A stretch of DNA of 64,000 bases from Waddliaceae bacterium (GTDB lineage Bacteria; Chlamydiota; Chlamydiia; Chlamydiales; Waddliaceae). Positions 2,692-52,593 of the stretch are shown here, in pieces. The stretch spans positions 352,001 through 416,000 of the forward strand of contig CAVRUH010000007.1 of the NCBI GenBank assembly GCA_963724325.1, written 5' to 3'. The notes under the pieces were generated by a model. That model was not told where the DNA came from and ran no database searches. It saw nothing but the letters and a program-made list of their open reading frames with translations. Each line of letters begins with the position of its first letter. Within the stretch, counting starts at the first letter, position 1. A program made the position numbers and the translations under genes.

Positions 2692-3297
2692 ATGCGTCTT
2701 TTCAATCAATTTCTTATTTTAACATTTTTAACTACATGTTTTTTCACTCTATCATCTAACAAGGAAGCAACACCTATGCAAAATACAAAAGTAGAAAATC
2801 CGGTCGTACTCATGAAAACATCCATGGGGGACATTAAAATCGAGCTTTATCCAGACAAGGCTCCAATCACAGTGCAGAATTTTCTTCAGTATGTGAAAAG
2901 CGGGTATTATGAACACACAATTTTTCACCGTGTCATTGATGGCTTTATGATTCAAGGCGGAGGTTTTACAGCCAATATGTCCCAAAAGAGCAATCTTGCA
3001 CCGATTAAGAATGAAGCAGCCAATGGATTGAAGAATACCCGTGGTACGATTGCCATGGCACGAACTTCGGTTGTCGACAGTGCATCGTCACAGTTTTTCA
3101 TCAACGTCGCTGATAATGCATTTTTGAATTATAGAGGCAATAATCCTCAAGAATTTGGTTATTGCGTTTTTGGTAAAGTCATTGATGGAATGGATGTCGT
3201 AGATAAAATTAAGGCTGTAGATACAACGACCATTGGTCCAAATGCCAATGTGCCTGTTAAGCCAGTAGAAATTTTAAGTGTAACAGAAATAAAGTAA
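2692..3297 (+). CDS. ppiA: Cyclophilin-type peptidyl-prolyl isomerase with signal peptide
   Basis: [45 protein letters not shown]. Confidence 0.95.
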
Positions 3298-12416: not shown

Positions 12417-12489
12417 CGCGGGGTGGAGCAGGGGTTAGCTCGTTGGGCTCATAACCCAAAGGCCGGTGGTTCGAATCCACCCCCCGCTA
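12417..12489 (+). tRNA. tRNA-fMet (CAT), initiator
   Basis: CGCGGGG acceptor with unpaired C1, GGG/CCC anticodon stem, CTCATAA loop, TTCGAAT T-loop; CCA not encoded. Confidence 0.95.
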
Positions 12490-12498
12490 TTGTTCTTC

Positions 12499-12571
12499 AG
12501 CGGTATAGCTCAGTGGTTAGAGCAGCGGAATCATAATCCGTTGGTCGCTGGTTCAAGTCCGGCTACCGCTA
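12499..12571 (+). tRNA. tRNA-Met (CAT), probably elongator (Ile2 not excluded)
   Basis: AGCGGTA/TACCGCT acceptor stem, GCGGA-ATCATAA-TCCGT anticodon arm, GGTTCAAGTCC T arm. Confidence 0.9.
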
Positions 12572-30471: not shown

Positions 30472-30969
30472 ATGAATACAAGAAGCTTAAAAATTGTAAT
30501 CACTATTTCAATTGCATTAATGTTCACTTTTATCGCGTTTAACAATATAAGTGATTACTGTACTAACTTCAGATTTGTTAGAACTGTTCTTAATATGGAA
30601 TCCATTAAAGCTACAGACATCCAGTGGCGGGCTATAACGAGTCCATTATTGCAACAGGCCTTCTATTTATTCATAATAATTTGGGAAGCCCTCACGGCAA
30701 TCGTTTGTTGGGGAGGTGCTGTGATGATGTTCAGAAATGTAAGTTATAATAGAGGCAAAATGATTGCAACGGCAGGCTTGACTTTGGGATTTTCCCTTTT
30801 TATGATTGGCTTTGTCATTGTTGCGGGTGAATGGTTTTATTTGTGGGATTCTCTTTTGAATACCATGCATTCAAAAGCTATATTGCTTGCACTCTTCCTC
30901 GGCACCTTCGCCTGTTTTGTATCACAAAAAGATGATGTTGAATATTTTTGTGCTATTCCCAAGGATTAA
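30472..30969 (+). CDS. DUF2165-type membrane protein
   Basis: FNNISDYCTNFRFVRTVLNM, WRAITSP, GFVIVAGEWF; ATG at 30472. Confidence 0.8.
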   Translation: MNTRSLKIVITISIALMFTFIAFNNISDYCTNFRFVRTVLNMESIKATDIQWRAITSPLLQQAFYLFIIIWEALTAIVCWGGAVMMFRNVSYNRGKMIATAGLTLGFSLFMIGFVIVAGEWFYLWDSLLNTMHSKAILLALFLGTFACFVSQKDDVEYFCAIPKD

Positions 30970-31369
30970 TAATAGGTATCCCAACCTCTGTAAAGTCTTT
31001 GGTGTTTAGCGTAACAAGTTCTAGTCCGTGTGACTTAGCAGTAGCGGCGATATAGAGATCTTGTACTCCAAGCGTTATACCTCTTTTAAGTAATTGTGAG
31101 TTCATTGTCCCCCACTCTTTTGCAATACGATCATCGATAGATAGAATCATGTCCTTGAAACGACTATAGATGTCACCATAAAACCAATCTTCTAAGTCTT
31201 TCTTTTTCTTAGATGGCGATAGTCTTTCGATGCCATCCCACAATTCTGCTATAGTTACAACACTTATGTAAAATAAGTCTTGGTTCTTGCTCTCAAACCA
31301 TATTTGGGTCTTCAAGGGAACCTTACCTCTTAGTTCGCTTAGTGTGCATGTGTCTAATAAATAACTCAT
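30953..31369 (-). CDS. vapC: VapC PIN-domain toxin
   Basis: YLLDT, SVVTIAEL, DLYIAATA, LVTLNTKDF, INPW. Confidence 0.92.
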   Translation of the reverse strand: MSYLLDTCTLSELRGKVPLKTQIWFESKNQDLFYISVVTIAELWDGIERLSPSKKKKDLEDWFYGDIYSRFKDMILSIDDRIAKEWGTMNSQLLKRGITLGVQDLYIAATAKSHGLELVTLNTKDFTEVGIPIINPWE

Positions 31370-34707: not shown

Positions 34708-35460
34708 TTAGCTTGTTGAATAAAAAACAGAGAAAAGGGTAAGGCCATGAGCTGGAGCGGTGACTCCTGCTAGGGTGCGATCTTTTTTGGAAAGTATAGT
34801 CTCCAGGCTTTCAACAAGAATTTTGCCGGTCCCGACGCCAATAAGTGTTCCAACGATATTGCGGACCATCTTATACAAAAAACTTCTTCCGGTGATCTTA
34901 ATCGTAATGCGATTGTCTTCGGTTTTTTCAATAATGATGCTTGTGATTTCTCGGATGGTATGTTCATAAGGCTCATTTTTTTTACTGTTGCAAAATGCAG
35001 CAAAGTCATGAGTTCCGATTAGTTTCGACGCTGCAATTTTCATTTTTTCTAGGTCCAGTTCTTGGGGCACATGCCAGTGGGTATATCTCTCTTTGGGCAT
35101 CACTACAGGGCCATTGCATATATGATAGCGGTATTCCTTGCCGATACAGTCGAGCGTTGGATGGAAATCGTTTGGAGCTTCCTCTACTGTCAGTACTGAA
35201 ATGTCTTTTGGCAAAAGATCGTTTAGATTTTTTAGAGAAATAAAAGGAGAATGTGTGAAAAAATTAACAACTTGACCTTGGGCATGGACCCCAGCATCAG
35301 TTCGACTAGCCGCCTGAATGGCAATTGGTTCTTGCAAAAGCGATTCAAGCGCCTCTTGCAAGGCGCCTTCAATGCTCGGACCAGTTTCTGTCTTCTGCCA
35401 ACCTAAGTAATTACTTCCATCATAGGCTAGCTTTAGGCGGATATTATGCAACGGTTGCAT
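34708..35460 (-). CDS. truA: tRNA pseudouridine(38-40) synthase
   Basis: LAYDGSNYLGWQ, SRTDAGVHA, GTHDF, FLYKMVRNIVG; ATG 35460. Confidence 0.95.
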   Translation of the reverse strand: MQPLHNIRLKLAYDGSNYLGWQKTETGPSIEGALQEALESLLQEPIAIQAASRTDAGVHAQGQVVNFFTHSPFISLKNLNDLLPKDISVLTVEEAPNDFHPTLDCIGKEYRYHICNGPVVMPKERYTHWHVPQELDLEKMKIAASKLIGTHDFAAFCNSKKNEPYEHTIREITSIIIEKTEDNRITIKITGRSFLYKMVRNIVGTLIGVGTGKILVESLETILSKKDRTLAGVTAPAHGLTLFSVFYSTS

Positions 35461-36043
35461 AGGTTTCAACAAATACTTTGATTCCATCAAGGAAGCGCTG
35501 AATGGCAAGTAAAATAAGGATCATCCCCATCAGCTTTTCTAAAGCCAGCAGCCCATTTTTTCCAATGACGCGCGAAAGGAATCGCGATGACATCAAAATT
35601 GCGCAAGCAGCAAGCCAGGCAATGAAGATCGCACTGAGCATGAGTCCTTGACTATTCTCCATGTGCGCATAAAGCATAATCGTTGCGACGAGCGATGGAC
35701 CGGCAACAAGAGGGACGGCTAATGGAATAACAAAAGGCTCATCTTTAGGTAAATTGCTTCGAATGCTATTTAAGTCGGGGAAAAGAATTTGCAAAGCCAC
35801 AAGAAATAGGATAATTCCCGAGGATATGCGTACAGTAGTTTCGGAAAGCTGCAGCAACGAAAAGATAACCTCGCCTATATAATTGAAGGCGATCATGATG
35901 ATCAGCGCAATCAACATCTCGCGCATAATGATGTAATTCTGTTTTTTTTTGTCCATCCCCTCGATCATCTTCAAAAATGATGAGATGTTTCCGATAGGAT
36001 CCATAATTAAAAATAGAACGATAGCAACGGTAAACAGTGACAT
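35444..36043 (-). CDS. MarC family membrane protein
   Basis: MDPIGN, PLAVPLVAGP, LEKLMG. Confidence 0.9.
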   Translation of the reverse strand: MSLFTVAIVLFLIMDPIGNISSFLKMIEGMDKKKQNYIIMREMLIALIIMIAFNYIGEVIFSLLQLSETTVRISSGIILFLVALQILFPDLNSIRSNLPKDEPFVIPLAVPLVAGPSLVATIMLYAHMENSQGLMLSAIFIAWLAACAILMSSRFLSRVIGKNGLLALEKLMGMILILLAIQRFLDGIKVFVETYATVA

Positions 36044-36059
36044 ATTGTGTAATCCTTAA

Positions 36060-36659
36060 TCAATGTAAAGTTTTTAAAAATAGTGACGCCCCTTTAACGA
36101 GCATTTCCACAGACATCATAGCAAGCATGAGTCCCATTAGCTGCTCAATGGCAACTAAGCCTCGTTTTCCTAGAATTTTTTGCAGGTAGGGGGCTAATAC
36201 CAATATAGTTGTGACTCCAATCCACGTGACGAGAATACAGGTTGTGAGGAGGAGGTGATTTGCAGTTTCAGCTGAAAATAGCATAATATTGGTCATAACT
36301 CCAGGGCCTGTGATGAGCGGGGTCGCGATTGGGACTAGGATTGGCATTTGTTTTATTGCGTGAGTTGCTCCGCTTTGTTGTTTGGGAAAGATCATGTTGA
36401 GGGCGACAATAAGATTTAAAACACCTCCGCAAGTACTTAGGGTGTATCTTTGGATCTCGAGGCTGTTGAGGAAAACGGTTCCCAGATATTGGAAGAATAG
36501 GGCAATAGCTAAGGCGAAAAACGATTCGCGAATCATGATTTTTTTTTGTGTTTCGAAGTCGAAATCTTTGATCAGATTGATGATTGCCGGTACGTTTCCT
36601 ATGGGATTGGCGATTAAGAAAAGCGCAACTGATATTGAAATAACTGTAAAAATTTCCAT
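36060..36659 (-). CDS. MarC family membrane protein
   Basis: ANPIGN, VPIATPLITGPG, IEQLMG. Confidence 0.9.
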   Translation of the reverse strand: MEIFTVISISVALFLIANPIGNVPAIINLIKDFDFETQKKIMIRESFFALAIALFFQYLGTVFLNSLEIQRYTLSTCGGVLNLIVALNMIFPKQQSGATHAIKQMPILVPIATPLITGPGVMTNIMLFSAETANHLLLTTCILVTWIGVTTILVLAPYLQKILGKRGLVAIEQLMGLMLAMMSVEMLVKGASLFLKTLH

Positions 36660-38762: not shown

Positions 38763-41700
38763 ATGATAAAATGTCCGCATTGCAAGCAAGAATGTCCTGA
38801 TGGGTCAAAGTTCTGTCCATCTTGCGGTAAACCCATGCAAAAAAAATGCCCCTCATGCGGACATATGGTAGACCCTAAGGACCATTTTTGCCCGGAATGC
38901 GGCACTTCATTGAAGGCTGAAACATCACCTCCTCCTCCTGAAAAGAAACCTGAAGCGTCTCCTAAGGCGGTTGACCAATTTGAAGGTAGCAGAAAACACG
39001 TGACTATATTCTTCTCGGATGTTGCCGGTTCGACAGCCCTAAGTGCGGGGCTTGATCCCGAAAAGGTGCGTGAAATGATGGAGCCAGTATTAAAAGCAAT
39101 GAACAGTGCCGTTCAACAATATGGGGGAACCGTAATTAAAGCTGCAGGTGATGGGATTATGGCTCTCTTCGGCGCCCCGATTTCATATGAAGATCATCCC
39201 CTGAGAGCATGCCACGCAGCATTGCTTTTGCAAAAAACAATAAAGGAACTTGAATCTCAAATATCGGTTAGAGTGGGCATTAATTCCGGAGAAGCCATTG
39301 TTGATCTAATAGACAGCGATACCCGAAAAGAGTACGATGCAATGGGTACAGCCGTTTCTCTTGCCTCACGTATGGAACAAATGGCAAAACCTGGGTCTGT
39401 GCAAATTTCTATAGAAACTTATCAATTGGTAAAAGATGCTGTTCTTGTGAAGTCCAATGGAGTGCAGGAAGTTAAAGGTTTTCCTGAACCTATGGAAATT
39501 TTTGAGTTAACTGGGGTTAAAAAAGATTTTACCAGATTCGTACAGCTTAAGACTTCGCAATTGACTAAATTTCAGGGACGTACCAAAGAAATGTCACTGC
39601 TTAATTCTACTTTAGCAATGGCTATGCAGGGGCAAGGTAAAATCATTGGGGTTGTGGGTGAACCCGGGGAGGGTAAATCGAGACTTGTTTATGAATTCAT
39701 GAATTTTTCGGAAGCAAAAGATCATGTACAATACATATCTCAGTGTCAAGCAATGATGAATAACAACTCATTTTTCTCTGCTAGACAGATTTTACGGAGT
39801 ATATTCAATGTTTTTGATCAGCCTCCAGAGGAACAGCAGGCAAGCATTAGGAAAACCTTGGATGTGTTTAAAGAAGATTTTAATGAGTTTCTCAATGTTT
39901 CATTTGCAATTTTAAATTTTCCCTTAACTGACCCAGAATGGACATCATTGTCACCTGAATTTAAGCGTGTTAAAATCCTAAATGGCTTTGTTAAGTTAAT
40001 CATTGCCATGGATATGCAAAAGCCAATTATTTTGTTAATTGAAGATATGCAATGGATTGATGAGGATACCCTTGAATGCGTGAATAGGCTTGCTAAGCAA
40101 CTTATAAATCACAAAATCCTACTTATCCTGACCTATCGACCCGAGTTTCATGATAGTGCTTTTGACAGAAACTATTTTACCAGAATTCCCTTAGATCCTT
40201 TGGCGGAAGATAATTTTTATGAATTAGTAAGTACTATTTTAGGGTCAGATGCTGGCCTAGAGCCATTGAAACAAAAGCTGGTCGAACGTTGTCACGGCAA
40301 CCCATTTTTTCTTGAGGAAACCATCCTTTCCTTGAAAGATCATAATGACCTTGAAGGTAGCCAGGGCAACTATTATTTAACCCATCCTGTTGAGAAAATT
40401 GACCTTCCCAACTCAGTCCAGTCTGTTTTGGAAGCACGTGTAGAACTGTTAGATTTTCAGGAAAAAAAGATCATTCGAACTTGCGCAGTCATAGGAAAGA
40501 CTATTCCTATTAATTTACTCAAGTTGGTGGCCAACGTAAAAGACGAAGATTTGGAATTGTCTTTAAATAAGATCAAGGAAAAAAAATTCATTTCAAAAAC
40601 ACAAGAATTTCCCGAAATCATGTTTTCTTTTACACATGATGTTGTTTTAGACACCATTTATAAAAGCATTCTAAACACACAGAAAAAGGTCTTGCATTTA
40701 AGTTTGCTTCGGAGTTTGGAAAAAAACTATCAAAGCAATGATCTCGAACAATTGACTATTAAAGCCCACCATGCGTTCAGAGGAGAAGACTGGGATAAAG
40801 CGCTCAATTACTATTTTGCATTACAGTGGGATGCTCATCAGCGATCTTCCCCATTCGAAGCCATCGTACACTTTGATAGGGCCACTGAGGCATATTACAA
40901 TATAGTAAATCCAACTCAAGAGCAAATAAAGCGTTATTTAACTGCCCTTAATCTGAAAGTGCACGAGTGTGTGTGGCTGGGAAGATATAATGAAGTTATT
41001 TTGTTATTTGATTCAGGAAAAGATGTAATTAGTGAATTGCATGACAAACTAAAAGAAGTTGAATTATACGCTTTTTTAGGTAATATGGGCAGTACCGGAT
41101 CAGGTGATTACATTAATGCGCTTAAGTACGCCGAGAAGGCATCAGAAATTTTAGCTGAAGTAGAAAAAGAAACCGGAACAAAGTATCAAGATTTACGAGT
41201 TTTAGTATGTCTGGCATTAGTGCATGGATACCATTATGCTGGAGAATACCGCAAAGAGATTAATTATGGCTTGAGCGCTTTGGAATTATTACAAGATCCT
41301 ACAAAAAGTGATAAAACAACCGGTGGGCCTATTTGGACAATTATTCAGGTTTGGGTACTCATGGCATCCGCCTTAATCGGAGATAGCGTTGTAGGTAAAA
41401 AATGTGAAACCGACCTATTGCGATTTTTAAAGATTGAAAAACCGTCTGCTGCTTTACATGTTAGTTACTTCGGATTGTGTATTTATTACGCCAGGATTAA
41501 AGATTGGGAACAGGCATTAAAATATGCAGATTTAGCGAGAGAAATCGGACATCAACTTGGTATTACCTTGGCTTTAAATGCAGTCTTAAGTGTGCAAGGC
41601 TACATTTACACTTTGCACAATAAAAATAAAGAAGCTGAAGACCTCCTTGATAAGGCTTATGAAATGGATAAACAGGGTAATTTTAATTTTTTCGCATCAA

Positions 41701-41972
41701 GATGTCTTGAATTACTTTGTGAGGGGTATATTAATCTCAAAAAAATTGAACCGGGAAAAGCTATTGTCGAAAAAATGTTTGAACTTGCTGAGAAACAGAA
41801 GCACAAAGTAATGGAAGTCTATGCATGGCGATGTAAAGCTGAAATCGATAAGATTGAAGGTATAGTGCCGCCAAACGAAGTGGAAGAAGAATTCAAAAAG
41901 GCCCTCAATCTTGCCGAATCAATGGGAATGCTACCCGAAGTCGAACGTTTAAAAAAGAACATCCTTAATTGA
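38763..41972 (+). CDS. Double zinc ribbon + class III nucleotide cyclase + STAND/AAA ATPase + TPR protein, copy 1
   Basis: Four CxxC; FSDVAGST, GDGIMALFG; Walker A GEPGEGKS, Walker B LLIEDMQW, GNPFF; helical-repeat C-terminus. Confidence 0.9.
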   Translation: MIKCPHCKQECPDGSKFCPSCGKPMQKKCPSCGHMVDPKDHFCPECGTSLKAETSPPPPEKKPEASPKAVDQFEGSRKHVTIFFSDVAGSTALSAGLDPEKVREMMEPVLKAMNSAVQQYGGTVIKAAGDGIMALFGAPISYEDHPLRACHAALLLQKTIKELESQISVRVGINSGEAIVDLIDSDTRKEYDAMGTAVSLASRMEQMAKPGSVQISIETYQLVKDAVLVKSNGVQEVKGFPEPMEIFELTGVKKDFTRFVQLKTSQLTKFQGRTKEMSLLNSTLAMAMQGQGKIIGVVGEPGEGKSRLVYEFMNFSEAKDHVQYISQCQAMMNNNSFFSARQILRSIFNVFDQPPEEQQASIRKTLDVFKEDFNEFLNVSFAILNFPLTDPEWTSLSPEFKRVKILNGFVKLIIAMDMQKPIILLIEDMQWIDEDTLECVNRLAKQLINHKILLILTYRPEFHDSAFDRNYFTRIPLDPLAEDNFYELVSTILGSDAGLEPLKQKLVERCHGNPFFLEETILSLKDHNDLEGSQGNYYLTHPVEKIDLPNSVQSVLEARVELLDFQEKKIIRTCAVIGKTIPINLLKLVANVKDEDLELSLNKIKEKKFISKTQEFPEIMFSFTHDVVLDTIYKSILNTQKKVLHLSLLRSLEKNYQSNDLEQLTIKAHHAFRGEDWDKALNYYFALQWDAHQRSSPFEAIVHFDRATEAYYNIVNPTQEQIKRYLTALNLKVHECVWLGRYNEVILLFDSGKDVISELHDKLKEVELYAFLGNMGSTGSGDYINALKYAEKASEILAEVEKETGTKYQDLRVLVCLALVHGYHYAGEYRKEINYGLSALELLQDPTKSDKTTGGPIWTIIQVWVLMASALIGDSVVGKKCETDLLRFLKIEKPSAALHVSYFGLCIYYARIKDWEQALKYADLAREIGHQLGITLALNAVLSVQGYIYTLHNKNKEAEDLLDKAYEMDKQGNFNFFASRCLELLCEGYINLKKIEPGKAIVEKMFELAEKQKHKVMEVYAWRCKAEIDKIEGIVPPNEVEEEFKKALNLAESMGMLPEVERLKKNILN

Positions 41973-42025
41973 CTTCTTATCCCCAAATACAATATAGATA
42001 GTATGGATTGACATAGGAAAATCTA

Positions 42026-45000
42026 ATGATAAAATGTCCGCATTGCAACCAAGAATGTCCTGATGGGTCAAAGTTCTGTCCATCTTGCGGTAAACCCATG
42101 CAAAAAAAATGCCCCTCATGCGGACATATGGTAGACCCTAAGGACCAATTTTGCCCGGAATGCGGCACTTCATTGAAGGCTGAAACATCACCTCCTCCTC
42201 CTCCTCCTCCTGAAAAGAAACCTGAAGCGTCTCCTAAGGCGGTTGACCAATTTGAAGGTAGCAGAAAACACGTGACTATATTCTTCTCGGATGTTGCCGG
42301 TTCGACAGCCCTAAGTGCGGGGCTTGATCCCGAAAAGGTACGTGAAATGATGGAGCCAGTATTAAAAGCAATGAACAGTGCCGTTCAACAATATGGGGGA
42401 ACCGTAATTAAAGCTGCAGGTGATGGGATTATGGCTCTCTTCGGCGCCCCGATTTCATATGAAGATCATCCCCTGAGAGCATGCCACGCAGCATTGCTTT
42501 TGCAAAAAACAATAAAGGAACTTGAATCTCAAATATCGGTTAGAGTGGGCATTAATTCCGGAGAAGCCATTGTTGATCTAATAGACAGCGATACCCGAAA
42601 AGAGTACGATGCAATGGGTACAGCCGTTGCTCTTGCCTCACGTATGGAACAAATGGCAAAACCTGGGTCTGTGCAAATTTCTATAGAAACTTATCAATTG
42701 GTAAAAGATGCTGTTCTTGTGAAGTCCAATGGAGTGCAGGAAGTTAAAGGTTTTCCTGAACCTATGGAAATTTTTGAGTTAACTGGGGTTAAAAAAGATT
42801 TTACCAGATTCGTACAGCTTAAGACTTCGCAATTGACTAAATTTCAGGGACGTACCAAAGAAATGTCACTGCTTAATTCTACTTTAGCAATGGCTATGCA
42901 GGGGCAAGGTAAAATCATTGGGATTATGGGGGAACCAGGGGAAGGTAAATCGAGATTGGTTTATGAATTCATGAATTTTTCTAGTGCGAAAGATCATGTA
43001 CAATACATATCTCAGTGTCAAGCAATGATGCATAACAACTCATTTTTCTCTGCTAAACAGATTTTACGAGGTATATTTGGGATTTTCGATCAGCCTCCAG
43101 AGGAACAGCAGGCAATTATCAGAAAAACCTTGGAGGTCTTTAAAGAAGATTTTAAGGAATATCTCAATGTTTCATTTGCGATTTTGAATTTTCCCTTAAA
43201 TGATCCTGAATGGACAGCATTGTCACCAGAATTTAAGCGTGTAAAGATCCTAAATGGCTTTGTTAAGTTAATAATTGCCATGGATTTACAAAAGTCGATT
43301 ATTTTGTTAATTGAAGATATGCAATGGATTGATGAAGATTCCCTTGAATGTGTAAATAGGCTTGCTAAGCAGATTATGAATCACAAAATTCTACTTATTC
43401 TGACTTATCGACCAGAATTTGACGATAGTGTTTTTGACAGAAACTATTTTACGAGAATCCCCATTGTTCCTTTGGCTGGTGATAATTTTTATGAATTGAC
43501 AACTAGTATTTTAGGGCCAGATGCTGGACTAGAACCTTTGAAGCGAAAGCTGGTCGAACGTTGTCATGGCAACCCATTTTTTCTTGAGGAAACGGTCCGT
43601 TCTTTAAAGGATCATGGTGATCTAGAAGGGAGTCAAGGAAACTACTTTTTGACTCATCCTGTTGAAAAAATTGATCTTCCCAACTCGGTCCAATCCGTTT
43701 TGGAGGCCCGAGTAGAGTTGCTAGAATCCCAGGACAAAAAGATCATTCGAACATGTGCAATTATCGGAAAAATGATACCATTTAATTTATTAAAATTGGT
43801 TGCCACTATAAACGATATAGATTTAGAACAGGCTTTAACAAGGATTTCTGATAAAAAATTTATTTCAAAAACACAAGAATTTCCAGAAACAATTTACATG
43901 TTTATTCACGAAGTTGTTTTAGATACCATCTACAAAAGTATTTTAAATACGCAAAAAAAAGCTGTGCATTTAAGCTTACTGCACAGTTTAGAAATAAACT
44001 ACCAAGGAAATGATCTCGAACAAATGACTATCAAGGCTCACCACGCATTTAGGGGAGAAGACTGGGATAAAGCTCTTTATTATTACGTTGCATTACAGTG
44101 GGATGCTCACCAGCGATCTTCCCCCTTAGAAGCTATTGTGCACTTTGATAAGGCCACCGAGGCATACTACAACATAGTAAATCCTACGAAAGAGCAAATA
44201 CAGCGATATTTGAACGCACTTAATAGGAAAGCGCACGAGTGTATTTGGTTGGCAAGATATCAAGAGATAATATTATTATTCGAATCGGGGAAAGAATTAA
44301 TTGCTGAATCCAATGATAAAATTGCAGAAATTGAATTAAATGCATTTCTAGGTAGCATAGGTAATCTTCTTTCAGGAGAGTACGTTGAAGCGCTTAAATA
44401 TGCAGAAAAAGCATTAGCAGCCTTAGATGAGTTAGAAAAAGAGACTGGAACAAAATATGAAGATTTACGAGTCATAGTATATCAGGCACTAGTGCATGCA
44501 TACCACTATGCGGGAGAATACCGCAAAGAGATAGATTATGGCTTGAGTGCTTTGGAGTTATTACAAGATCCCACAAAAAGTGATAAAACAAGTGGGGGAC
44601 CTGTTTGGACAATTATTCAGGTTTGGGTTATCATGGCTTCTGCCTTGGTCGGAGATACCCATGCAGGTAAAAAATGTGAAACTGACCTATTGCGTTTTTT
44701 AAAGATTGAAAAACCGTCAGCTGCTTTACATATTTGTTATTTCGGATTGTGTATTTATTACGCCAATATTGCAGACTGGGAACAGGCATTAAAATATGCA
44801 GATTTATCTAGAGAAATCGGACATCAACTGGGTATTATCTTAGCTTTAAATACAGTCTTAAGTGTACAAGGCTACATATATACTTTGCAAAACAAAAATA
44901 AAGAAGCAGAAGAACTACTTGATCAAGCATATGAGCTCGATAAAAAGGGCAATTTTAATTTCTTTGCATCACGATGTCTTGAATTTGTTTGTCATGGGTA

Positions 45001-45244
45001 TATTAATCTCAAAAAAAATGAACCGGCAAAAGCTATTGTCGAAAAAATGTTTGAACTGGCTGAGAAACAGAAGCACAAAGTAATGGAAGTCTATGCATGG
45101 CGATGTAAAGCTGAAATCGATAAGATTGAAGGTAAAGTGCCGCCAAACGAAGTGGAAGAAGAATTCAAAAAGGCCCTCAATCTTGCCGAATCAATGGGAA
45201 TGCTACCCGAAGTCGAACGAATAAAAAAGAGCATCCTTCATTGA
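42026..45244 (+). CDS. Zinc ribbon-cyclase-STAND-TPR protein, copy 2
   Basis: Same motifs; N-terminal ~0.9 kb almost identical to copy 1. Confidence 0.9.
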   Translation: MIKCPHCNQECPDGSKFCPSCGKPMQKKCPSCGHMVDPKDQFCPECGTSLKAETSPPPPPPPEKKPEASPKAVDQFEGSRKHVTIFFSDVAGSTALSAGLDPEKVREMMEPVLKAMNSAVQQYGGTVIKAAGDGIMALFGAPISYEDHPLRACHAALLLQKTIKELESQISVRVGINSGEAIVDLIDSDTRKEYDAMGTAVALASRMEQMAKPGSVQISIETYQLVKDAVLVKSNGVQEVKGFPEPMEIFELTGVKKDFTRFVQLKTSQLTKFQGRTKEMSLLNSTLAMAMQGQGKIIGIMGEPGEGKSRLVYEFMNFSSAKDHVQYISQCQAMMHNNSFFSAKQILRGIFGIFDQPPEEQQAIIRKTLEVFKEDFKEYLNVSFAILNFPLNDPEWTALSPEFKRVKILNGFVKLIIAMDLQKSIILLIEDMQWIDEDSLECVNRLAKQIMNHKILLILTYRPEFDDSVFDRNYFTRIPIVPLAGDNFYELTTSILGPDAGLEPLKRKLVERCHGNPFFLEETVRSLKDHGDLEGSQGNYFLTHPVEKIDLPNSVQSVLEARVELLESQDKKIIRTCAIIGKMIPFNLLKLVATINDIDLEQALTRISDKKFISKTQEFPETIYMFIHEVVLDTIYKSILNTQKKAVHLSLLHSLEINYQGNDLEQMTIKAHHAFRGEDWDKALYYYVALQWDAHQRSSPLEAIVHFDKATEAYYNIVNPTKEQIQRYLNALNRKAHECIWLARYQEIILLFESGKELIAESNDKIAEIELNAFLGSIGNLLSGEYVEALKYAEKALAALDELEKETGTKYEDLRVIVYQALVHAYHYAGEYRKEIDYGLSALELLQDPTKSDKTSGGPVWTIIQVWVIMASALVGDTHAGKKCETDLLRFLKIEKPSAALHICYFGLCIYYANIADWEQALKYADLSREIGHQLGIILALNTVLSVQGYIYTLQNKNKEAEELLDQAYELDKKGNFNFFASRCLEFVCHGYINLKKNEPAKAIVEKMFELAEKQKHKVMEVYAWRCKAEIDKIEGKVPPNEVEEEFKKALNLAESMGMLPEVERIKKSILH

Positions 45245-45297
45245 CTTCTAATCCTCAAATACAATATAGATAGTATGGATTGACATAGGAAAATTTA

Positions 45298-48200
45298 ATG
45301 ATAAAATGTCCGCATTGCAACCAAGAATGCCCTGAGGGTTCAAAGTTCTGCCCGTCGTGTGGCAATCCCATGCAAAAAAAATGCCCATCTTGCGGGCATA
45401 TGGTAGACCCTAATGATCATTTTTGCCCCGAATGCGGCACTTCATTGACTACGGCACCCCCACCTCCTCACCCTGAAAAGAAGCCTGAAGCAGCCACTAA
45501 GGCAATTGATCAATTTGAAGGCAGCAGGAAACACGTGACTATTTTTTTCTCGGATGTTGCCGGTTCGACAGCCCTAAGCGCGGGGCTTGATGCTGAAAAA
45601 GTGCGTGAAATGATGGAGCCAGTATTAAAAGCAATGAGCAGTGCCGTTCACCAATATGGGGGTACCGTAATTAAAGCTGCAGGTGATGGTATTATGGCTC
45701 TATTCGGTGCCCCGATTTCCTACGAGGATCATCCCCTAAGAGCATGCCATGCGGCATTACTTCTGCAAAAAACAATAAAGGAACTTGAATCACAAATATC
45801 GGTCAGAGTGGGCATTAACTCCGGAGAAGCTATTGTCGATCTAATAGGCAGTGACACCCGAAAAGAGTTCGATGCGATGGGTACAGCCGTCTCTCTTGCC
45901 GCACGCATGGAACAAATGGCGAAACCTGGGACTGTGCAAATTTCTACAGACACTTATCAATTGGTAAAAGATGCTGTTCTTGTGAAGTCCAATGGTGTGC
46001 AAGAAGTTAAAGGTTTTCCCGAACCTATGGAAATTTTTGAGTTAACAGGGGTTAAAAAGAATTTTACCCGATTTGTGCAGCTCAAGACTTCGCAACTGAC
46101 TATATTTCAGGGACGTGCGAAAGAGATGTCGCTGCTTAGCTCTACTTTAGCAATGGCAATGCAGGAACATGGTAAAATCATTGGGATTGTAGGTGAACCT
46201 GGGGAGGGTAAATCGAGACTGGTTTATGAATTCATGAATTTTTCAGAAGCAAAAGATCATGTACAATATATATCTCAGTGTCAGGCAATGATGAATAACA
46301 ACTCATTTTTCTCTGCTAGACAGATTTTACGAGGTCTATTTGGCATTTTTGATCAGCCTCCAGAAGAACAACAGGAAATCATCAAAAAAACCTTGGAGCC
46401 CTTCAAAGAAGATTTTAATGAGTTTCTCAATATTTCATTTGCGATTTTGAATTTTCCTTTAGCAGATCCAGAATGGACATCATTGTCACCTGAATTTAAA
46501 CGTGTAAAAATCCTAAATGGCTTTGTTAAGTTAATAATTGCCATGGATTTACAAAAGCCCATTATTTTGTTAATTGAAGATATGCAATGGATCGATGATG
46601 ATTCCCTTGAATGCGTAAATAGGCTTGCTAAGCAGCTTATGACTCACAAAATCCTACTTATCCTGACCTATCGACCTGAGTTTGATGATAGTGCTTTTGA
46701 CAAAAACTATTTTACCCGAATTCCCATAGATCCTTTAGCTGGTGATAATTTTTATGAATTGGTATCTAATATTTTAGGACCAGATGCCGGCCTAGAACCA
46801 TTGAAACAAAAACTGGTCGCACGTTGCCATGGCAACCCATTTTTTCTTGAGGAAACCATTCGTTCCTTGAAAGATCATAATGATCTTGAAGGGAGCCAGG
46901 GCAACTATTATTTAACCCATCCTGTGGAGAAAATCGATCTTCCCAACTCAGTCCAGTCTGTTTTGGAAGCACGTGTAGAACTGTTAGATCTTCAGGAAAA
47001 AAAGATCATTCGAACCTGTGCTGTCATCGGAAAGACTATACCTCTTAATTTACTCAAGTTGGTTGCCAATGTAAAAGACGAAGATTTGGAATTATCTTTA
47101 AATAAGATTGAGGAAAAGAAATTCATTTCAAAAACACAAGAATTTCCTGAAATTATGTTTTCTTTTATACACGATGTTGTTTTAGACACAATCTACAAAA
47201 GTATTTTAAACACACAGAAAAAGACCTTGCATTTAAGTTTGCTTCGAAATTTGGAAAAAAACTATCAAGGCAATGATCTTGAATTATTGGCAATTAAGGC
47301 GCACCACGCATTTCGGGGAGAAGACTGGGATAAAGCTCTAAATTATTATGTTGCATTACAGTGGGATGCCCATCAGCGATCTTCCCCATTGGAAGCTATT
47401 ACACACTTTGACAGGGCTACCGAGGCATATTATAATATAGCAAATCCTACGAAAGAGCAGATACAGCGATATTTAACTGCCCTGAATAGAAAAGTCCATG
47501 AGTGTGTTTGGTTGGGAAGATTTCAAGAAGTTATTTTGTTATTTGAATCAGGAAAAGATTTAATTTTAAATCTAAATGATAAAAAACTAGAAGTGGAGTT
47601 AAATGCCTTCTTGGGTAATGTTGGATATATTGGATCTGGGAAATATGTTGAAGGCCTCAAATGTGCTGAGAATGCATTAGCGATTCTGGAAGAAATGGAA
47701 AAGACAACCGGAACCAAAGATGAAGGATTATCCGTTTTGGTAAACGCGGCATTATTGCGCGGATATCATTATGCCGGAGAATACCGTAAGGAAATAAATT
47801 CTGGTTTAAGTGCCTTAGAATATTTACCTGATCCCACTGAAAGGGATAAATCAACTGGCGGACCTGTTTGGGCTATTATAAAGATGTGGGTCATCATGGC
47901 CTCTGCAGTTGTTGGTGATACGGATATAGCAAAAAAATGCGAGACTGATCTTTTGCGATTTACAAAATTTGAAAAACCATCAACCTCCTTATATATATCT
48001 TATGTTGGCCTTTGTATATACTACGCTAGGATTAGCGATTGGGAAAATGCTTTGAAATTTGCAGATTTAGCTAGAGAATTGGGTTTTCAATTGGGACTTA
48101 GTCTGGCCTTAAATGCTGTTCTAGGTATAAAAGGATATATTTTTACTTTACAAAATAAAAATGAAGAGGCTGAAGGCCTTCTTGACGAAGCTTATGATAT

Positions 48201-48507
48201 CGCAAAAAGGGGCAATTTTATCTTTTTTGCTTCAAGGGGCATTGACATTATCTGTGAGGGGTATATTAATCTCAAAAAATTCGAACCGGCAAAGGCTATT
48301 GTCGATAAGATGTTTGAACTTGCTGAGAAACAGAAGCACAAAGTCATGGAAGCCTATGGATGGAGATTGAAAGCTGAAATCGACAGGCTCGAAGGTAAAG
48401 TTCCGCCAAATGAAGTGGAAGAAGAATTCAAAAAGGCCCTCAATCTTGCCGAATCAATGGGAATGCTTCCCGAAATTGAACGAATTAAAAAAGTATCAAT
48501 GCACTGA
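45298..48507 (+). CDS. Zinc ribbon-cyclase-STAND-TPR protein, copy 3
   Basis: Same motifs; most divergent TPR region. Confidence 0.9.
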   Translation: MIKCPHCNQECPEGSKFCPSCGNPMQKKCPSCGHMVDPNDHFCPECGTSLTTAPPPPHPEKKPEAATKAIDQFEGSRKHVTIFFSDVAGSTALSAGLDAEKVREMMEPVLKAMSSAVHQYGGTVIKAAGDGIMALFGAPISYEDHPLRACHAALLLQKTIKELESQISVRVGINSGEAIVDLIGSDTRKEFDAMGTAVSLAARMEQMAKPGTVQISTDTYQLVKDAVLVKSNGVQEVKGFPEPMEIFELTGVKKNFTRFVQLKTSQLTIFQGRAKEMSLLSSTLAMAMQEHGKIIGIVGEPGEGKSRLVYEFMNFSEAKDHVQYISQCQAMMNNNSFFSARQILRGLFGIFDQPPEEQQEIIKKTLEPFKEDFNEFLNISFAILNFPLADPEWTSLSPEFKRVKILNGFVKLIIAMDLQKPIILLIEDMQWIDDDSLECVNRLAKQLMTHKILLILTYRPEFDDSAFDKNYFTRIPIDPLAGDNFYELVSNILGPDAGLEPLKQKLVARCHGNPFFLEETIRSLKDHNDLEGSQGNYYLTHPVEKIDLPNSVQSVLEARVELLDLQEKKIIRTCAVIGKTIPLNLLKLVANVKDEDLELSLNKIEEKKFISKTQEFPEIMFSFIHDVVLDTIYKSILNTQKKTLHLSLLRNLEKNYQGNDLELLAIKAHHAFRGEDWDKALNYYVALQWDAHQRSSPLEAITHFDRATEAYYNIANPTKEQIQRYLTALNRKVHECVWLGRFQEVILLFESGKDLILNLNDKKLEVELNAFLGNVGYIGSGKYVEGLKCAENALAILEEMEKTTGTKDEGLSVLVNAALLRGYHYAGEYRKEINSGLSALEYLPDPTERDKSTGGPVWAIIKMWVIMASAVVGDTDIAKKCETDLLRFTKFEKPSTSLYISYVGLCIYYARISDWENALKFADLARELGFQLGLSLALNAVLGIKGYIFTLQNKNEEAEGLLDEAYDIAKRGNFIFFASRGIDIICEGYINLKKFEPAKAIVDKMFELAEKQKHKVMEAYGWRLKAEIDRLEGKVPPNEVEEEFKKALNLAESMGMLPEIERIKKVSMH

Positions 48508-48586
48508 AAAATAACAATCTTATTTTATTGACTTTTTATACTTTTCGCTATTATTTATGGAAGTAGGTTGAGCAAGGAAAAAATTA

Positions 48587-51500
48587 ATGATAAGATGTCC
48601 AAATTGTAATAAAGAATGTCCAGACGGATCAAAGTTCTGTCGGTCTTGTGGTAAGCTGATACAAAAAACATGCCCTTCTTGCGGACTTGTAGTGGACCCT
48701 CAGGACAGTTTTTGTCAACAATGCGGCACTTCATTGACTGCCGCAACACCGCCTTCATTTGAAAAAACAACAGAAGAAGAATCCAAAGAGATTGATCAAT
48801 TTGAGGGTAGCAGGAAACATGTGACTATATTTTTCTCTGATGTCACAGGATCTACAGTGCTCAGTTCAGGGCTTGATCCCGAAAAAATACGTGAAATGAT
48901 GGTGCCGGTATTAAAAGCAATGAGCAGTGCTGTTCACGAATATGGGGGTACCGTAATTAAAGCTGCAGGTGATGGTATTATGGCTCTCTTCGGCGCCCCG
49001 ATTTCCTACGAAGATCATCCCCTGAGGGCTTGCCATGCCGCATTACTTTTGCAAAAAACAATAAGGGAACTTAAATCTCAAATATCGGTACGAGTCGGCA
49101 TTAATTCCGGAGAAGCTATTGTCGATCTAATCGGTAGTGACGCCCGAAAAGAGTACGATGCGATGGGAACAGCTGTTGCTCTTGCCGCACGCATGGAACA
49201 AATGGCACTACCTGGAACTGTGCAAATTTCTACAGACACCTATCAATTAGTAAAGGATGCAGTTCTTGTGAAGTCCAATGGGATGCAGCTAGTGAAAGGC
49301 TTTCCAGAACCTATGGAAATTTTTGAGTTGACCGGGGTAAAGAAGGATTTTACCCGATTTGTGCAGCTCAAGACTTCGCAACTGACTAGATTTCAGGGAC
49401 GTACCAAAGAGATGTCGTTGCTTAATTCTACTTTAGCTATGGCTATACAGGGGCAAGGTAGAATCATTGGTATTGTAGGTGAACCCGGGGAGGGTAAATC
49501 GAGACTGGTTTATGAATTCATGAATTTTTCTAGTGCGAAAGATCATGTCCAATACATATCTCAGTGTCAAGCGATGATGAATAACAACTCCTTTTTCTCT
49601 GTACGACAGATATTACGAGGCATATTTGGTATCTTTGATCAGCCTCCAGAGGAACAGCAAGCAATCGTCAGAAAAACCTTGGAAGTCTTTAAAGAAGATT
49701 ATAACGAATATCTCAATGTTTCATTTGCGATTTTGAATTTTCCATTAAAAGATCCTGAATGGGAATCATTATCACCTGAATTTAAACGTGTAAAAACCCT
49801 AAATGGCTTTGTTAAGTTAATAATTTCTATGGATTTACAAAAACCTATTATTTTGTTGATTGAAGATATCCAATGGATTGATGAAGATTCACTTGAATGC
49901 GTGAATAGGCTTGGCAAGCAGCTTATAAATCACAAAATTCTACTTATCCTGACTTATAGGCCTGAATTTGACGATAGTGCTTATGACAGGAACAATTTTG
50001 CGAGAATCCCCATTGTCCCTTTGCCTCGTGATAATTTTTATGAATTGGTAACTAATATTTTAGGGCCGGATGCTGGGCTAGAGCCATTAAAACAAAAGCT
50101 GGTCGAACGTTGTCATGGCAACCCATTTTTTCTTGAAGAAACTGTCCGCTCCTTAAAGGATCATGGTGAGCTAGAAGGGAGTCAAGGAAACTACTTTTTG
50201 ACTCATCCTGTTGATAACATTATTCTTCCCAACTCAGTCCAGTCCGTCTTGGAGGCCCGTGTAGAGTTGCTAGATTACGAGGACAAAAAAATCATTCGAA
50301 CATGTGCTGTTATTGGAAAGACGATACCCCTAAATTTATTAAAGTTAGTTTCCAACGTAAAGGAAGTTGATTTAGAACAAGCCTTGGCAAAGATTTCGGA
50401 TAAAAAATTCATTTCGAAAACGCAAGAATTCCCAGAAATCATTTATACGTTTATTCATGATGTTGTTTTGGACACCATCTACAAAGGGATTCTAAAAAAG
50501 CAAAAAAAAATAATTCATTTAAGCTTGCTGCATAGTCTTGAAATAAATTATCAAGGAAATGATCTCGAACAAATGACAATCAAGGCTCACCACGCATTTA
50601 GGGGGGAAAACTGGGATAAAGCGCTTAATTACTACATTGCATTGCAATTGAATGCGCACCTCCGATCTTCGCCATTGGAAGCCATCGCACACTTTGACAA
50701 AGCTACTGATGCATACTACAACATAGTAAATCCTACGAAGGAGCAGACACAGCGATATTTGAATGCACTTTATAGGAAGGGGCATGAATGTATTTGGCTG
50801 GGAAGGAATCAAGAGGTAATATTATTATTTGAAACGGGGAAAGACTTAATTACTGCTTCAAGTGATAAAATTGCGGAAATCGAATTAAATGCATTTCTAG
50901 GCAACCTAGGTAACTTGGGTTCAGGAAAGTACATTGAAGCGCTTAAATATGCAGAAAAAGCATTAGCAGTCTTAGAAGAGGTAGAAAAAGAGACCAGAGC
51001 AAATTATGAAGATTTACGAGTTTTAGTATATCAGGCACTCGTACATGCATACCATTATTCTGATGAATATCGTAAAGAGATAGATTATGGTCTTAGTGCT
51101 TTGGAATTTTTACAAGATCCTACAAAAAGTGATAAAACGACAGGCGGGCCTGTTTGGACAATTATTCAGGTTTGGATTATCATGGCTTCTGCCTTGATCG
51201 GAGATACTATTGTAGGTAAAAAATGTGAAACCGACCTATTGCGTTTTTTAAAGATTGAAAAACCATCTGCTGCTTTACATATTTGTTATTTCGGATTGTG
51301 TGTCTATTACGCCAATATTGCAGATTGGGAACAGGCATTAAAATATGCAGATTTGTCTAGAGAAATTGGACGTCAACTAGGTATTACCTTAGCTTTAAAT
51401 GCAGTCTTAAGCGTGCAAGGCTACATTTACTCTTTGCAAAATAAAAATAAAGAAGCAGAAGTCCTTCTTGATAGAGCTTACGAGATGGATAAAGAAGGAG

Positions 51501-51796
51501 ATTTCATTTTCTTTGCATCACGAAGTCTTGATTTCCTCTGTCAGGGGTATATTAATCTCAAAAAAATCGAACGGGCGAAAGCTATTGTCGATAGGATGTT
51601 TGAACTTGCTGAGAAACAGAAGCACAAAGTTATGGAAGTCTATGGATGGAGGTTTAAAGCTGAAATTGACAGGCTTGAAGGTAAAGTTCCGCCAAATGAA
51701 GTGGAAGATGAATTCAAAAAAGCGCTCAATCTTGCCGAATCAATGGGAATGCTTCCCGAAGTTGAACGGATTCGGACAAGCATGGCCATCCATTAA
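48587..51796 (+). CDS. Zinc ribbon-cyclase-STAND-TPR protein, copy 4
   Basis: Same motifs; most divergent zinc-ribbon region. Confidence 0.9.
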   Translation: MIRCPNCNKECPDGSKFCRSCGKLIQKTCPSCGLVVDPQDSFCQQCGTSLTAATPPSFEKTTEEESKEIDQFEGSRKHVTIFFSDVTGSTVLSSGLDPEKIREMMVPVLKAMSSAVHEYGGTVIKAAGDGIMALFGAPISYEDHPLRACHAALLLQKTIRELKSQISVRVGINSGEAIVDLIGSDARKEYDAMGTAVALAARMEQMALPGTVQISTDTYQLVKDAVLVKSNGMQLVKGFPEPMEIFELTGVKKDFTRFVQLKTSQLTRFQGRTKEMSLLNSTLAMAIQGQGRIIGIVGEPGEGKSRLVYEFMNFSSAKDHVQYISQCQAMMNNNSFFSVRQILRGIFGIFDQPPEEQQAIVRKTLEVFKEDYNEYLNVSFAILNFPLKDPEWESLSPEFKRVKTLNGFVKLIISMDLQKPIILLIEDIQWIDEDSLECVNRLGKQLINHKILLILTYRPEFDDSAYDRNNFARIPIVPLPRDNFYELVTNILGPDAGLEPLKQKLVERCHGNPFFLEETVRSLKDHGELEGSQGNYFLTHPVDNIILPNSVQSVLEARVELLDYEDKKIIRTCAVIGKTIPLNLLKLVSNVKEVDLEQALAKISDKKFISKTQEFPEIIYTFIHDVVLDTIYKGILKKQKKIIHLSLLHSLEINYQGNDLEQMTIKAHHAFRGENWDKALNYYIALQLNAHLRSSPLEAIAHFDKATDAYYNIVNPTKEQTQRYLNALYRKGHECIWLGRNQEVILLFETGKDLITASSDKIAEIELNAFLGNLGNLGSGKYIEALKYAEKALAVLEEVEKETRANYEDLRVLVYQALVHAYHYSDEYRKEIDYGLSALEFLQDPTKSDKTTGGPVWTIIQVWIIMASALIGDTIVGKKCETDLLRFLKIEKPSAALHICYFGLCVYYANIADWEQALKYADLSREIGRQLGITLALNAVLSVQGYIYSLQNKNKEAEVLLDRAYEMDKEGDFIFFASRSLDFLCQGYINLKKIERAKAIVDRMFELAEKQKHKVMEVYGWRFKAEIDRLEGKVPPNEVEDEFKKALNLAESMGMLPEVERIRTSMAIH

Positions 51797-52593
51797 ACGT
51801 ATTTAGCGAACACAAGAGAGATCATTGATATCGATACCTTATTAACCTCCCTACAAAAGGAAAACAGGATATGCAGGATCGCAAGCGGCAGGATATGAAC
51901 GATAAATGTAACTTCTTACCCTGCTTTAAAATAAAAAGTAATTGACATCATCTTCCTAAAATCCTTCATATCCTGCCGCTTGCGATCCTGCATATCCTGT
52001 TTTCCTTTTGCAGCGAGGTTAACCAATGATCTCTCTTGTGTTCTCTGTGGTAAAAGATATTTTAGGTTGATGATTTGTTATTTTCGGCGTTGAACGGATT
52101 CGGACAAGCATGGCCATCCATTAAACGTATTCAGCGAACACAAGAGAGATCATTGCTATCTTGTTATTTCTTAAAAAAAACAGGATATGCAGGATCGCAA
52201 GCGGCAGGATTTGAATGATAAATGTAACTTCTTACCCTGCTTTAAAATAAAAAGTAATTGACATCATCTTTCTATAATCCTTCATATCCTGCCGCTTGCG
52301 ATCTTGCATATCCTGTTTTCCTTAACACAAGAGAGATCATTGCTATCTTGTTATTTCTGAAAAATAACAGGATATGCAAGATCGCAAGCGGCAGGATTTG
52401 AACGATATATGTAACATCTTACCCTGCTTTAAAATAAAAAGTAATTGACATCATCTTTCTATAATCCTTCATATCCTGCCGCTTGCGATCTTGCATATCC
52501 TGTTTTCCTTTTGCAGCGAGGTTAACCAATGATCTCTCTTGTGTTCTCTGTGGTAAAAGATATTTTAGGTTGATGATTTGTTATTTTCGGCGT
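51761..52593. repeat. Triplicated nested long inverted repeat (MITE-like), with duplicated 3' ends of both flanking genes
   Basis: 46-bp perfect IR 51854-51899 / 51965-52010; 20-bp outer IR 51808-51827 / 52024-52043; further copies at ~52177-52319 and ~52366-52505. Confidence 0.92.

Follow-up and report, generated by a model that had tools for sequence, protein, structure and literature searches.

The 64,000-nucleotide window analysed here (positions 352,001 to 416,000 of contig CAVRUH010000007.1, assembly GCA_963724325.1, from a Waddliaceae bacterium) carries four tandem genes, each of which encodes a double zinc ribbon, a class III cyclase domain, a STAND ATPase and C-terminal helical repeats. 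We consider it reasonably probable that these genes form an array of ligand-gated STAND adenylate cyclases that supplies the bacterium's own cyclic AMP (cAMP) network. All four matches to PF00211 in the genome fall within the array. The same genome contains 14 matches to the cyclic-nucleotide-binding (CNB) family PF00027, distributed over nine open reading frames (ORFs), and has the most CNB domains of the 41 related genomes compared.

The four genes lie on the plus strand and share one architecture by ORF, translation and Pfam annotation. Copy 1 (38763..41972), copy 3 (45298..48507) and copy 4 (48587..51796) each encode 1069 residues, and copy 2 (42026..45244) encodes 1072 residues, with three additional prolines in its linker. 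Translation reveals no internal stop in any of the four ORFs. Copies 2, 3 and 4 are 87%, 85% and 81% identical to copy 1, respectively, copy 4 being the most divergent of the four. Spacer 1 (41973..42025) and spacer 2 (45245-45297) are 53 nt long and nearly identical to each other, unlike spacer 3 (48508-48586), which has 79 nt. The database gene call for copy 1 (P0005, 1045 aa) starts at Met25, 24 codons short of the ORF start; the first zinc knuckle (C4/C7), which lies upstream of that start, is kept in 110 of 120 family sequences.

Within copy 1, the double zinc ribbon (38772..38903, aa 4-47, Pfam DZR 45.6 bits) places eight cysteines in four CxxC pairs and is followed by the class III cyclase domain (38994..39509, aa 78-249, 100.4 bits) with D86, K126, D130, D192, S199 and R203. 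The AAA_16 STAND NTPase comes next (39567..40109, aa 269-449, 52.6 bits) with FQGRxKE, the Walker A motif GEPGEGKS and the Walker B motif ILLIED, and then a helical arm containing HGNPFF together with a winged-helix region (40206..40727, aa 482-655), delimited by AlphaFold secondary structure and alignment to 6mfv. The C-terminal TPR-like repeats (40743..41966, aa 661-1068, 22 helices) are the presumed sensor and the most variable part. Pfam matches to DZR, Guanylate_cyc (PF00211, 94-100 bits against a cut-off of 21.9) and AAA_16 (47-53 bits against 32.6) are found in all four copies, in which the motifs FFSD (D86), AAGDG (D130), FQGRTKE, GEPGEGKS, ILLIED and HGNPFF can be read. The zinc-ribbon cysteines are conserved in 110-113 of the 120 family sequences, and G299, G302, G304 and K305 are invariant in all 70 aligned sequences. 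No HTH or GerE family appears among the Pfam matches at E <= 0.01, and the protein ends in repeat helices.

This domain order is further supported by an AlphaFold2 model of copy 1, built from a 70-sequence alignment (mean pLDDT 82.5). In the model, aa 1-50 form two zinc ribbons and aa 53-74 a disordered linker. The cyclase fold takes up aa 75-252 and is followed by an alpha/beta NOD at aa 270-476, a helical arm at aa 482-526, a winged-helix region that extends to about aa 655, and 22 paired helices at aa 661-1068. With the whole model as query, the top Foldseek match is PH0952, a STAND-TPR protein (6mfv; E 1.4e-13, 815 columns, TM 0.49 on the target, 14% identity), and the cyclase domain alone matches solved class III cyclases with TM 0.82-0.89 on the targets. 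Weaker matches include Avs3 (8dgc, E 3.6e-10, TM 0.10-0.17) and CED-4. Much of what the first-pass annotation proposed is borne out here, namely four intact tandem paralogs of about 1070 residues, their zinc-ribbon, class III cyclase and P-loop motifs, the C-terminal helical repeats, and an effector-STAND-repeat layout resembling MalT; it was also right that the architecture is known elsewhere from single genes.

The active site of the cyclase domain points to the likely product. We compared the four copies with 116 relatives (120 sequences in all), aligning the copies to P. aeruginosa CyaB (3r5g, sequence match at E 1.1e-29). The metal-binding D86 and D130, as well as Arg203, are invariant in all 120 sequences. 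Each of the four copies carries K126 and D192, with K126 aligning to the CyaB Lys; a Lys/Asp pair at these positions is the substrate signature of adenylyl cyclases. This Lys/Asp pair is uncommon in the family (Lys in 7 and Asp in 8 of the 120), where 107 sequences have Gln or Asn with Thr or Ser at these positions; it recurs in the relatives P0006 and P0007, and P0083 has His/Asp. The Lys/Asp pair thus makes ATP, rather than a pyrimidine nucleotide, the predicted substrate. A sixth position, 199, aligns with the Asn of the CyaB VNLASR motif and is Ser or Ala in the copies, His in 109 of the 120 sequences, and Asn in P0007, the closest Asn-bearing relative. Despite the residue at 199, the copies are members of the class III cyclase family by sequence and fold.

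Candidate receivers of the nucleotide are encoded in the same genome. Four of the nine CNB ORFs encode proteins that combine two CNB domains with a BFD-type 2Fe-2S domain, and in two of these four an FAD/NAD reductase is present as well. A fifth ORF joins two CNB domains to an M50-like membrane domain, and two others encode single-domain CNB proteins. In the remaining two, which encode large multi-pass membrane proteins, the CNB domain stands at the C-terminus. These membrane proteins lie at C7:28867-31806 (980 aa) and C7:523715-526108 (798 aa), C7 being the contig that holds the window; one of them has HEAT repeats, and neither membrane part matched a Pfam family. The Gly-Glu ... Arg phosphate-binding cassette is kept in most of the CNB domains. 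The two-CNB/BFD paralogs are located at C5:271887-273935, C5:277625-281065, C7:268955-270484 and C7:297501-299531, and three CNB genes are grouped within 10 kb on contig C5. As a side observation, these paralogs suggest a cyclic-nucleotide-gated redox enzyme family in a chlamydia, which may merit a look of its own.

Across the 41 related genomes, class III cyclases and CNB domains occur together in 23 and are both missing from 12, while three genomes have a cyclase only and three have CNB domains only, one of these last resting on a match below the Pfam cut-off. Within the family (eight genomes), three have both and five have neither. This is the pattern expected of a self-contained bacterial cAMP system. 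We further note that none of the 148 neighbouring genes at 37 related loci carries a CNB domain and that no partner gene recurs there, so the proteins themselves look self-contained.

Catalysis by class III cyclases needs dimers, which suggests how a sensor could be coupled to nucleotide synthesis in these proteins. Beyond the architecture itself, we infer every step of the scheme. Binding of a ligand to the C-terminal repeat sensor would release autoinhibition, and the NOD would then exchange ADP for ATP and multimerise, following the MalT/PH0952 scheme. Multimerisation would pair the N-terminal cyclase domains of different chains into dimers, and the paired domains would make cAMP from ATP. 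The cAMP would in turn act on the bacterium's own CNB proteins, that is, the redox proteins, the M50-like protease, the membrane proteins and the single-domain proteins. Different cues may act on the four sensors. The activation steps assumed here, in which autoinhibition is relieved, ADP is exchanged for ATP and the protein multimerises, are shown for MalT and proposed from PH0952 (PMC6468293). A more ambitious version, which we hold with considerable doubt, would make the array the sole cAMP source of the bacterium: an acquired STAND-cyclase would have replaced the usual cyclases of the group, been amplified to four copies and shuffled its segments into a four-channel, NLR-style receptor bank, possibly with mixed oligomers. 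Such a bank would read cues from the host cell or from development and, through an unusually large set of 14 CNB domains, would drive redox enzymes, a membrane protease and transporter-like proteins.

Analysis of the variation among the four copies indicates that purifying selection acts along the whole protein and is somewhat relaxed in the repeats. The fraction of variable amino acid columns is 13% in the cyclase, 22% in the NTPase and 28% in the arm and winged helix, and reaches 32-45% over aa 661-1000, 38% in the zinc ribbons and 48% in the linker. Synonymous divergence climbs along the protein in parallel with this amino acid variability. Nei-Gojobori omega is 0.125-0.173 for whole genes and 0.06-0.24 in each domain where it could be estimated, with the lowest values on the cyclase (0.07-0.11), and pN/pS exceeds 1 in one of 600 40-codon windows, at about codons 781-820 between copies 2 and 4. 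Diversifying selection on the sensor was considered and rejected on these values, with the reservation that four recombining sequences give low power. The earlier proposal points the right way in placing the differences mainly in the repeats, with the zinc ribbons and the linker varying as well; its description of the cyclase and ATPase parts as nearly invariant suits the cyclase and not the NTPase; and its picture of a diversified receptor array finds no support in the per-domain dN/dS values.

The copies are also recombination mosaics, having exchanged segments after duplication. Copies 1 and 2 differ at five sites in the first 900 aligned nucleotides and at 359 in the other 2319, and their longest identical run spans 56 polymorphic sites (permutation p <= 0.0005). 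In coordinates of the window, this tract covers the 5' part of copy 1 (38763..39650, plus strand), which has 99-100% DNA identity to 42026-42922 of copy 2. Parsimony-informative sites change their grouping along the gene accordingly: nt 1-900 group (1,2)(3,4), with counts of 40:2:0, nt 901-2400 group (1,3)(2,4), supported by 89 sites where each alternative grouping has 14, and nt 3001-3219 return to (1,2)(3,4), with counts of 15:0:0. The middle block fits a two-gene unit that was duplicated, and the two end blocks would fit later gene conversion or unequal crossing-over. The uniformity of the N-terminal part is therefore partly due to homogenisation by recombination between copies and not to constraint alone.

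Several observations weigh against a set of ligand-gated adenylate cyclases working within the bacterium. TPR models stay below their cut-offs in the copies (TPR_12 at 20.6-26 bits against 30.1, TPR_MalT at 20.6 against 45), cut-offs that the relatives P0007 and P0008 pass. No characterised member of the zinc-ribbon family was found in the literature searched, and we know of no characterised member of this zinc-ribbon cyclase/STAND family. The co-occurrence counts come from related genomes and are not independent observations. The genome is 84.6% complete, so another cyclase may sit in an unassembled part, and the search covered class III cyclases only. The CNB domains could also sense host cAMP. 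Lastly, the transition-state Asn position is occupied by Ser in copies 1 and 3 and by Ala in copies 2 and 4, and this substitution may make catalysis slow or atypical. Taken to its end, the last point about position 199 would make the cyclase domain weak or inactive, a part of a STAND scaffold that binds nucleotide or mediates dimerisation, a reading we regard as unlikely. It would account for a position that lacks Asn in all four copies and toggles between the paralogs, and it is in keeping with a family that departs from the canonical site, both at 199 and at the substrate pair. It accords poorly with the retention of both metal-binding aspartates, Lys126, Asp192 and Arg203, with a cyclase domain that is the most constrained part of the protein by omega and variable columns, and with a genome whose 14 CNB domains are matched by no other detected class III cyclase. 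Moreover, the M. tuberculosis protein Rv0386 is cited as active despite a non-canonical Gln/Asn pair (bioRxiv 10.1101/2024.03.06.583649).

Two further readings would direct the array against invaders or towards the host, and we regard each as quite improbable. In an antiviral or conflict array of Avs/NLR-like or Pycsar-like type, the repeats would detect an invader protein and the cyclase would make an alarm nucleotide that activates a killing effector. The effector-STAND-repeat layout is indeed that of Avs proteins, with Avs3 and CED-4 among the weaker fold matches, the sensor is the part in which the tandem paralogs vary most, and one codon window (about codons 771-820, copy 2 against copy 4) has pN/pS near 1. 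PADLOC PycC models match the cyclase domain (best 1.3e-17, 61.9 bits), yet the general Pfam cyclase model scores 100 bits, which indicates generic homology, and PycC (on P0001 and P0004) is the only PADLOC match, with none to the STAND, Avs or NACHT models. The PLD protein downstream matches DrmC models (2.5e-29) and a RecD2-type helicase lies beside it; however, this PLD-RecD2 pair adjoins dapB in two related genomes that have no array (G004 and G006), and RecD2 scores 902 bits on a housekeeping equivalog. No PF00027 match falls in the window, the nearest being at C7:299163 and C7:459217, with the array at C7:390763-403796, and the neighbours at the 37 related loci are mixed metabolic genes, with type I restriction-modification genes beside one locus. 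Omega far below 1 throughout and a Lys/Asp pair that predicts ATP and not pyrimidines likewise argue against defence. No evidence was found for sensing of phage, one of the possible inputs named in the first-pass annotation: the PycC match is generic, the flanks are housekeeping genes, and CNB domains are absent from the 148 neighbours. A Pycsar system, defined by an adjacent CNB-effector gene, was tried and rejected, as no such gene adjoins the array or the 37 related loci. In the host-directed reading, the bacterium would deliver cAMP, or the cyclase proteins as such, to an amoeba or other host and alter its signalling. Five TLC nucleotide-transporter genes (none in 14 control genomes) point to an obligate intracellular lifestyle, and the array is a lineage-specific gain, both of which would suit such a role. 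Across relatives, however, cyclases occur together with CNB receptors of the bacteria themselves, a pattern that favours internal use; the N-terminus is predicted to be a folded zinc ribbon and not obviously a disordered secretion signal, and no route for exporting cAMP was identified.

The window genes belong to a known, very large and routinely annotated family that is biochemically unstudied. A search of 5.8 billion proteins gave 4153 matches among 8000 candidates scored, and the best 120, as listed, are mostly about 1110-1130 aa long, align over 99% of the query with 29-32% identity and have the same Pfam set. Relatives are commonly annotated as 'class 3 adenylate cyclase/tetratricopeptide (TPR) repeat protein' (JGI), and Atlas clusters of 52-276 members have an identical domain set. 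A scan of species-representative genomes that covered 8 of 64 parts yielded 603 relatives, all of them distant. The 80 best belong to Methylomirabilota/Rokubacteria, Burkholderiales, Binatia, Alphaproteobacteria, Planctomycetota and further groups, and frequently occupy several loci in one metagenome-assembled genome. More than one cyclase-domain match within 10 kb is found at eight of these 80 loci. Five loci were inspected, and at three of them (L091, L096 and L109) adjacent same-strand copies with four N-terminal CxxC motifs were found, the Pfam annotation being for L091:9986-12199. Tandem duplication of this gene type is thus not special to the window and occurs in other phyla. These DZR - Guanylate_cyc - AAA_16 - TPR proteins of soil and groundwater bacteria have the same domain order and a similar length, can be aligned end to end with the window proteins, and share the eight zinc-ribbon cysteines, the metal-binding aspartates, the Arg, Walker A and GNPFF. 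Most of them differ from the window proteins in that the latter belong, with P0006, P0007 and P0083, to a clade from AT-rich genomes, carry Lys/Asp and Ser/Ala at 199, and have repeats too diverged for the TPR cut-offs.

What is unusual is the presence of this architecture in this phylum, where it was found in one of 400 sampled genomes. The four copies group as a single clade (support 1.0) in a tree built from 70 members of the family, so they were duplicated within this lineage. The successive sisters of this clade are P0006 (45% identity), P0007 (36%) and P0083, all with the amino acid bias of AT-rich genomes, unlike the remaining family. Searched with the array query, the genome (2.37 Mb in 11 contigs) gives the four array copies and nothing else. 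No full-length relative was found in 40 related genomes, in which the matches are to the cyclase domain or the NTPase of other architectures. With the STAND-repeat part as query, the 400 genomes of the order gave nothing beyond NTPase matches of 22-28% identity in 11 genomes, in ORFs of 755-1837 aa, most of them about 1500-1840 aa. Conversely, P0007, the nearest full-length outsider from a large contig, matches the window's genome alone among 400 genomes of the phylum (E <= 1e-40), and JGI metagenome contigs searched with P0001 contain no relative closer than 26% identity. Class III cyclases as such are less of a surprise in a chlamydial lineage than the first-pass annotation had it, which overstated the case, as 26 of the 41 related genomes have them, with up to seven in one genome.

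The array occupies a variable slot between dapB and the PLD-RecD2 pair, its flanks being dapA/dapB, PLD-RecD2 and dnaG. The distance from dapB to the PLD gene is 13.9 kb in the window, 1.2 kb in G004 and 2.7 kb in G006. In G004 the slot after dapA-dapB holds one 381-aa gene without known identity, followed by PLD-RecD2, and in G006 it holds a beta-lactamase-family gene and one gene without known identity. The most economical account is that a single gene was gained in the lineage and then amplified in tandem. The gain was probably by horizontal transfer, which is suggested by the patchy distribution and the variable slot and not by a tree of named taxa. In Parachlamydiaceae, repeat proteins encoded in tandem arrays are described (PMC4209131). 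The copy-specific stretches of all four genes show no differences from soil-metagenome contigs of two studies; these are short, low-depth Logan contigs, none of which spans the array, and one of the samples may be the source of the assembly.

Scans of Rfam and for tRNA genes gave no match within or beside the array, and the Chlam_OMP6 marker gave none in the genome or in any of the controls. The region contains 47 promoter-like sites against 41.2 +/- 6.4 in shuffled sequences, and terminator-like sites are rarer in it than in shuffles. One promoter-like site, TTGACA-16-TAAAAT (11 of 12 positions, with TG), occurs in both spacer 1 and spacer 2 (42008-42035 and 45280-45307). Its -10 element lies within the first codons of copies 2 and 3, and transcription from these sites, if used, would begin 3' of the annotated ATG. 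Between copy 4 and the PLD gene, a gap of 768 nt (51797-52564) contains a hairpin element three times, with 62-nt arms about 57 nt apart (51842-51903/51961-52022, 52177-52219/52277-52325 and 52366-52406/52464-52525); the arm has 166 matches across the genome (at least 35 nt, at least 85%). Elsewhere in the window, two adjoining MarC/NAAT-family membrane protein paralogs of 199 aa each lie upstream of dapA on the minus strand (35444-36659), two tRNA-Met (CAT) genes stand in tandem with 10 nt between them (12417-12571), and a VapC-like PIN-domain gene of 138 aa (30953-31369) has no adjoining antitoxin among ORFs of at least 120 aa.

Comparison with known systems places the window proteins among several related designs. 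M. tuberculosis Rv0386, as described in one source, has 1085 aa and the order class IIIc cyclase, MalT-type ATPase, TPR and LuxR HTH; its cyclase has been studied and its ATPase and TPR have not, and it is reported to alter host signalling through delivered cAMP (bioRxiv 10.1101/2024.03.06.583649). By these descriptions, Rv0386 (and also Rv1358 and Rv2488c) shares with the window proteins the N-terminal class III cyclase, the MalT/AAA_16 ATPase and a similar size, and has a TPR region where the window proteins have TPR-like helices. Rv0386 differs in its LuxR/HTH C-terminus, which the window proteins lack, and in its Gln/Asn pair in place of Lys/Asp; the double zinc ribbon is not among the domains described for it. 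E. coli MalT and the Pyrococcus horikoshii protein PH0952 (6MFV) share the succession of NOD, arm, winged helix and repeat sensor, the repeats being TPR in their case, and have a DNA-binding domain as effector, whereas in the window proteins the effector is a cyclase that follows zinc ribbons. Avs1-5 and bacterial NACHT proteins share the effector-NTPase-repeat logic at the level of a distant fold likeness only, the window effector being a signalling cyclase and not a nuclease, protease or NADase, and the window offers no defence-island context. Mammalian soluble adenylyl cyclase (ADCY10) in its full-length form has its cyclase followed by a long region with a P-loop and degenerate TPR motifs (PMC3475452), and the sequence of its catalytic domain matches weakly (4clf, E 6.5e-6). 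It has two tandem cyclase domains that act as a pseudo-heterodimer and no zinc ribbon, whereas the window proteins have one cyclase domain each.

A second type of STAND-coupled cyclase exists in the phylum itself, in the form of Pkinase-AAA_16-GAF-cyclase giants. These proteins of other chlamydiae also combine a STAND ATPase and a class III cyclase in one chain, in the reverse order, with an N-terminal kinase, a C-terminal cyclase after GAF and no zinc ribbon, and they are 22-28% identical to the window proteins, in the NTPase only. A sister species of the same genus (G001) encodes a 1781-aa protein of this type (L129:3895-9240) as well as GAF-cyclase proteins, and the type was not found in the window's genome with the array query. 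A split form is also seen in that species, with a Pkinase-AAA_16 protein (1196 aa) followed by a GAF-cyclase protein (562 aa).

The gene type is common and often tandem in soil bacteria, and the array opens no new category. New at the local level are the lineage-specific gain, the recombination mosaic, the Lys/Asp pair without the Asn, and the position of the array as the only detected cyclase source for a rich CNB set. Few large signalling proteins of soil bacteria are as common as the STAND-coupled class III cyclases. Their ligand, the role of their ATPase and their oligomeric state are unreported in the literature searched. The array offers a compact test case for them, with four close paralogs as the only class III cyclases detected and nine candidate receivers in the same small genome; as the paralogs differ mainly in the sensor, they are natural chimeras for mapping specificity. 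With class III cyclases in 26 of the 41 genomes sampled, cAMP signalling appears widespread in environmental chlamydiae, and the type of cyclase that serves it can vary between species of one genus.

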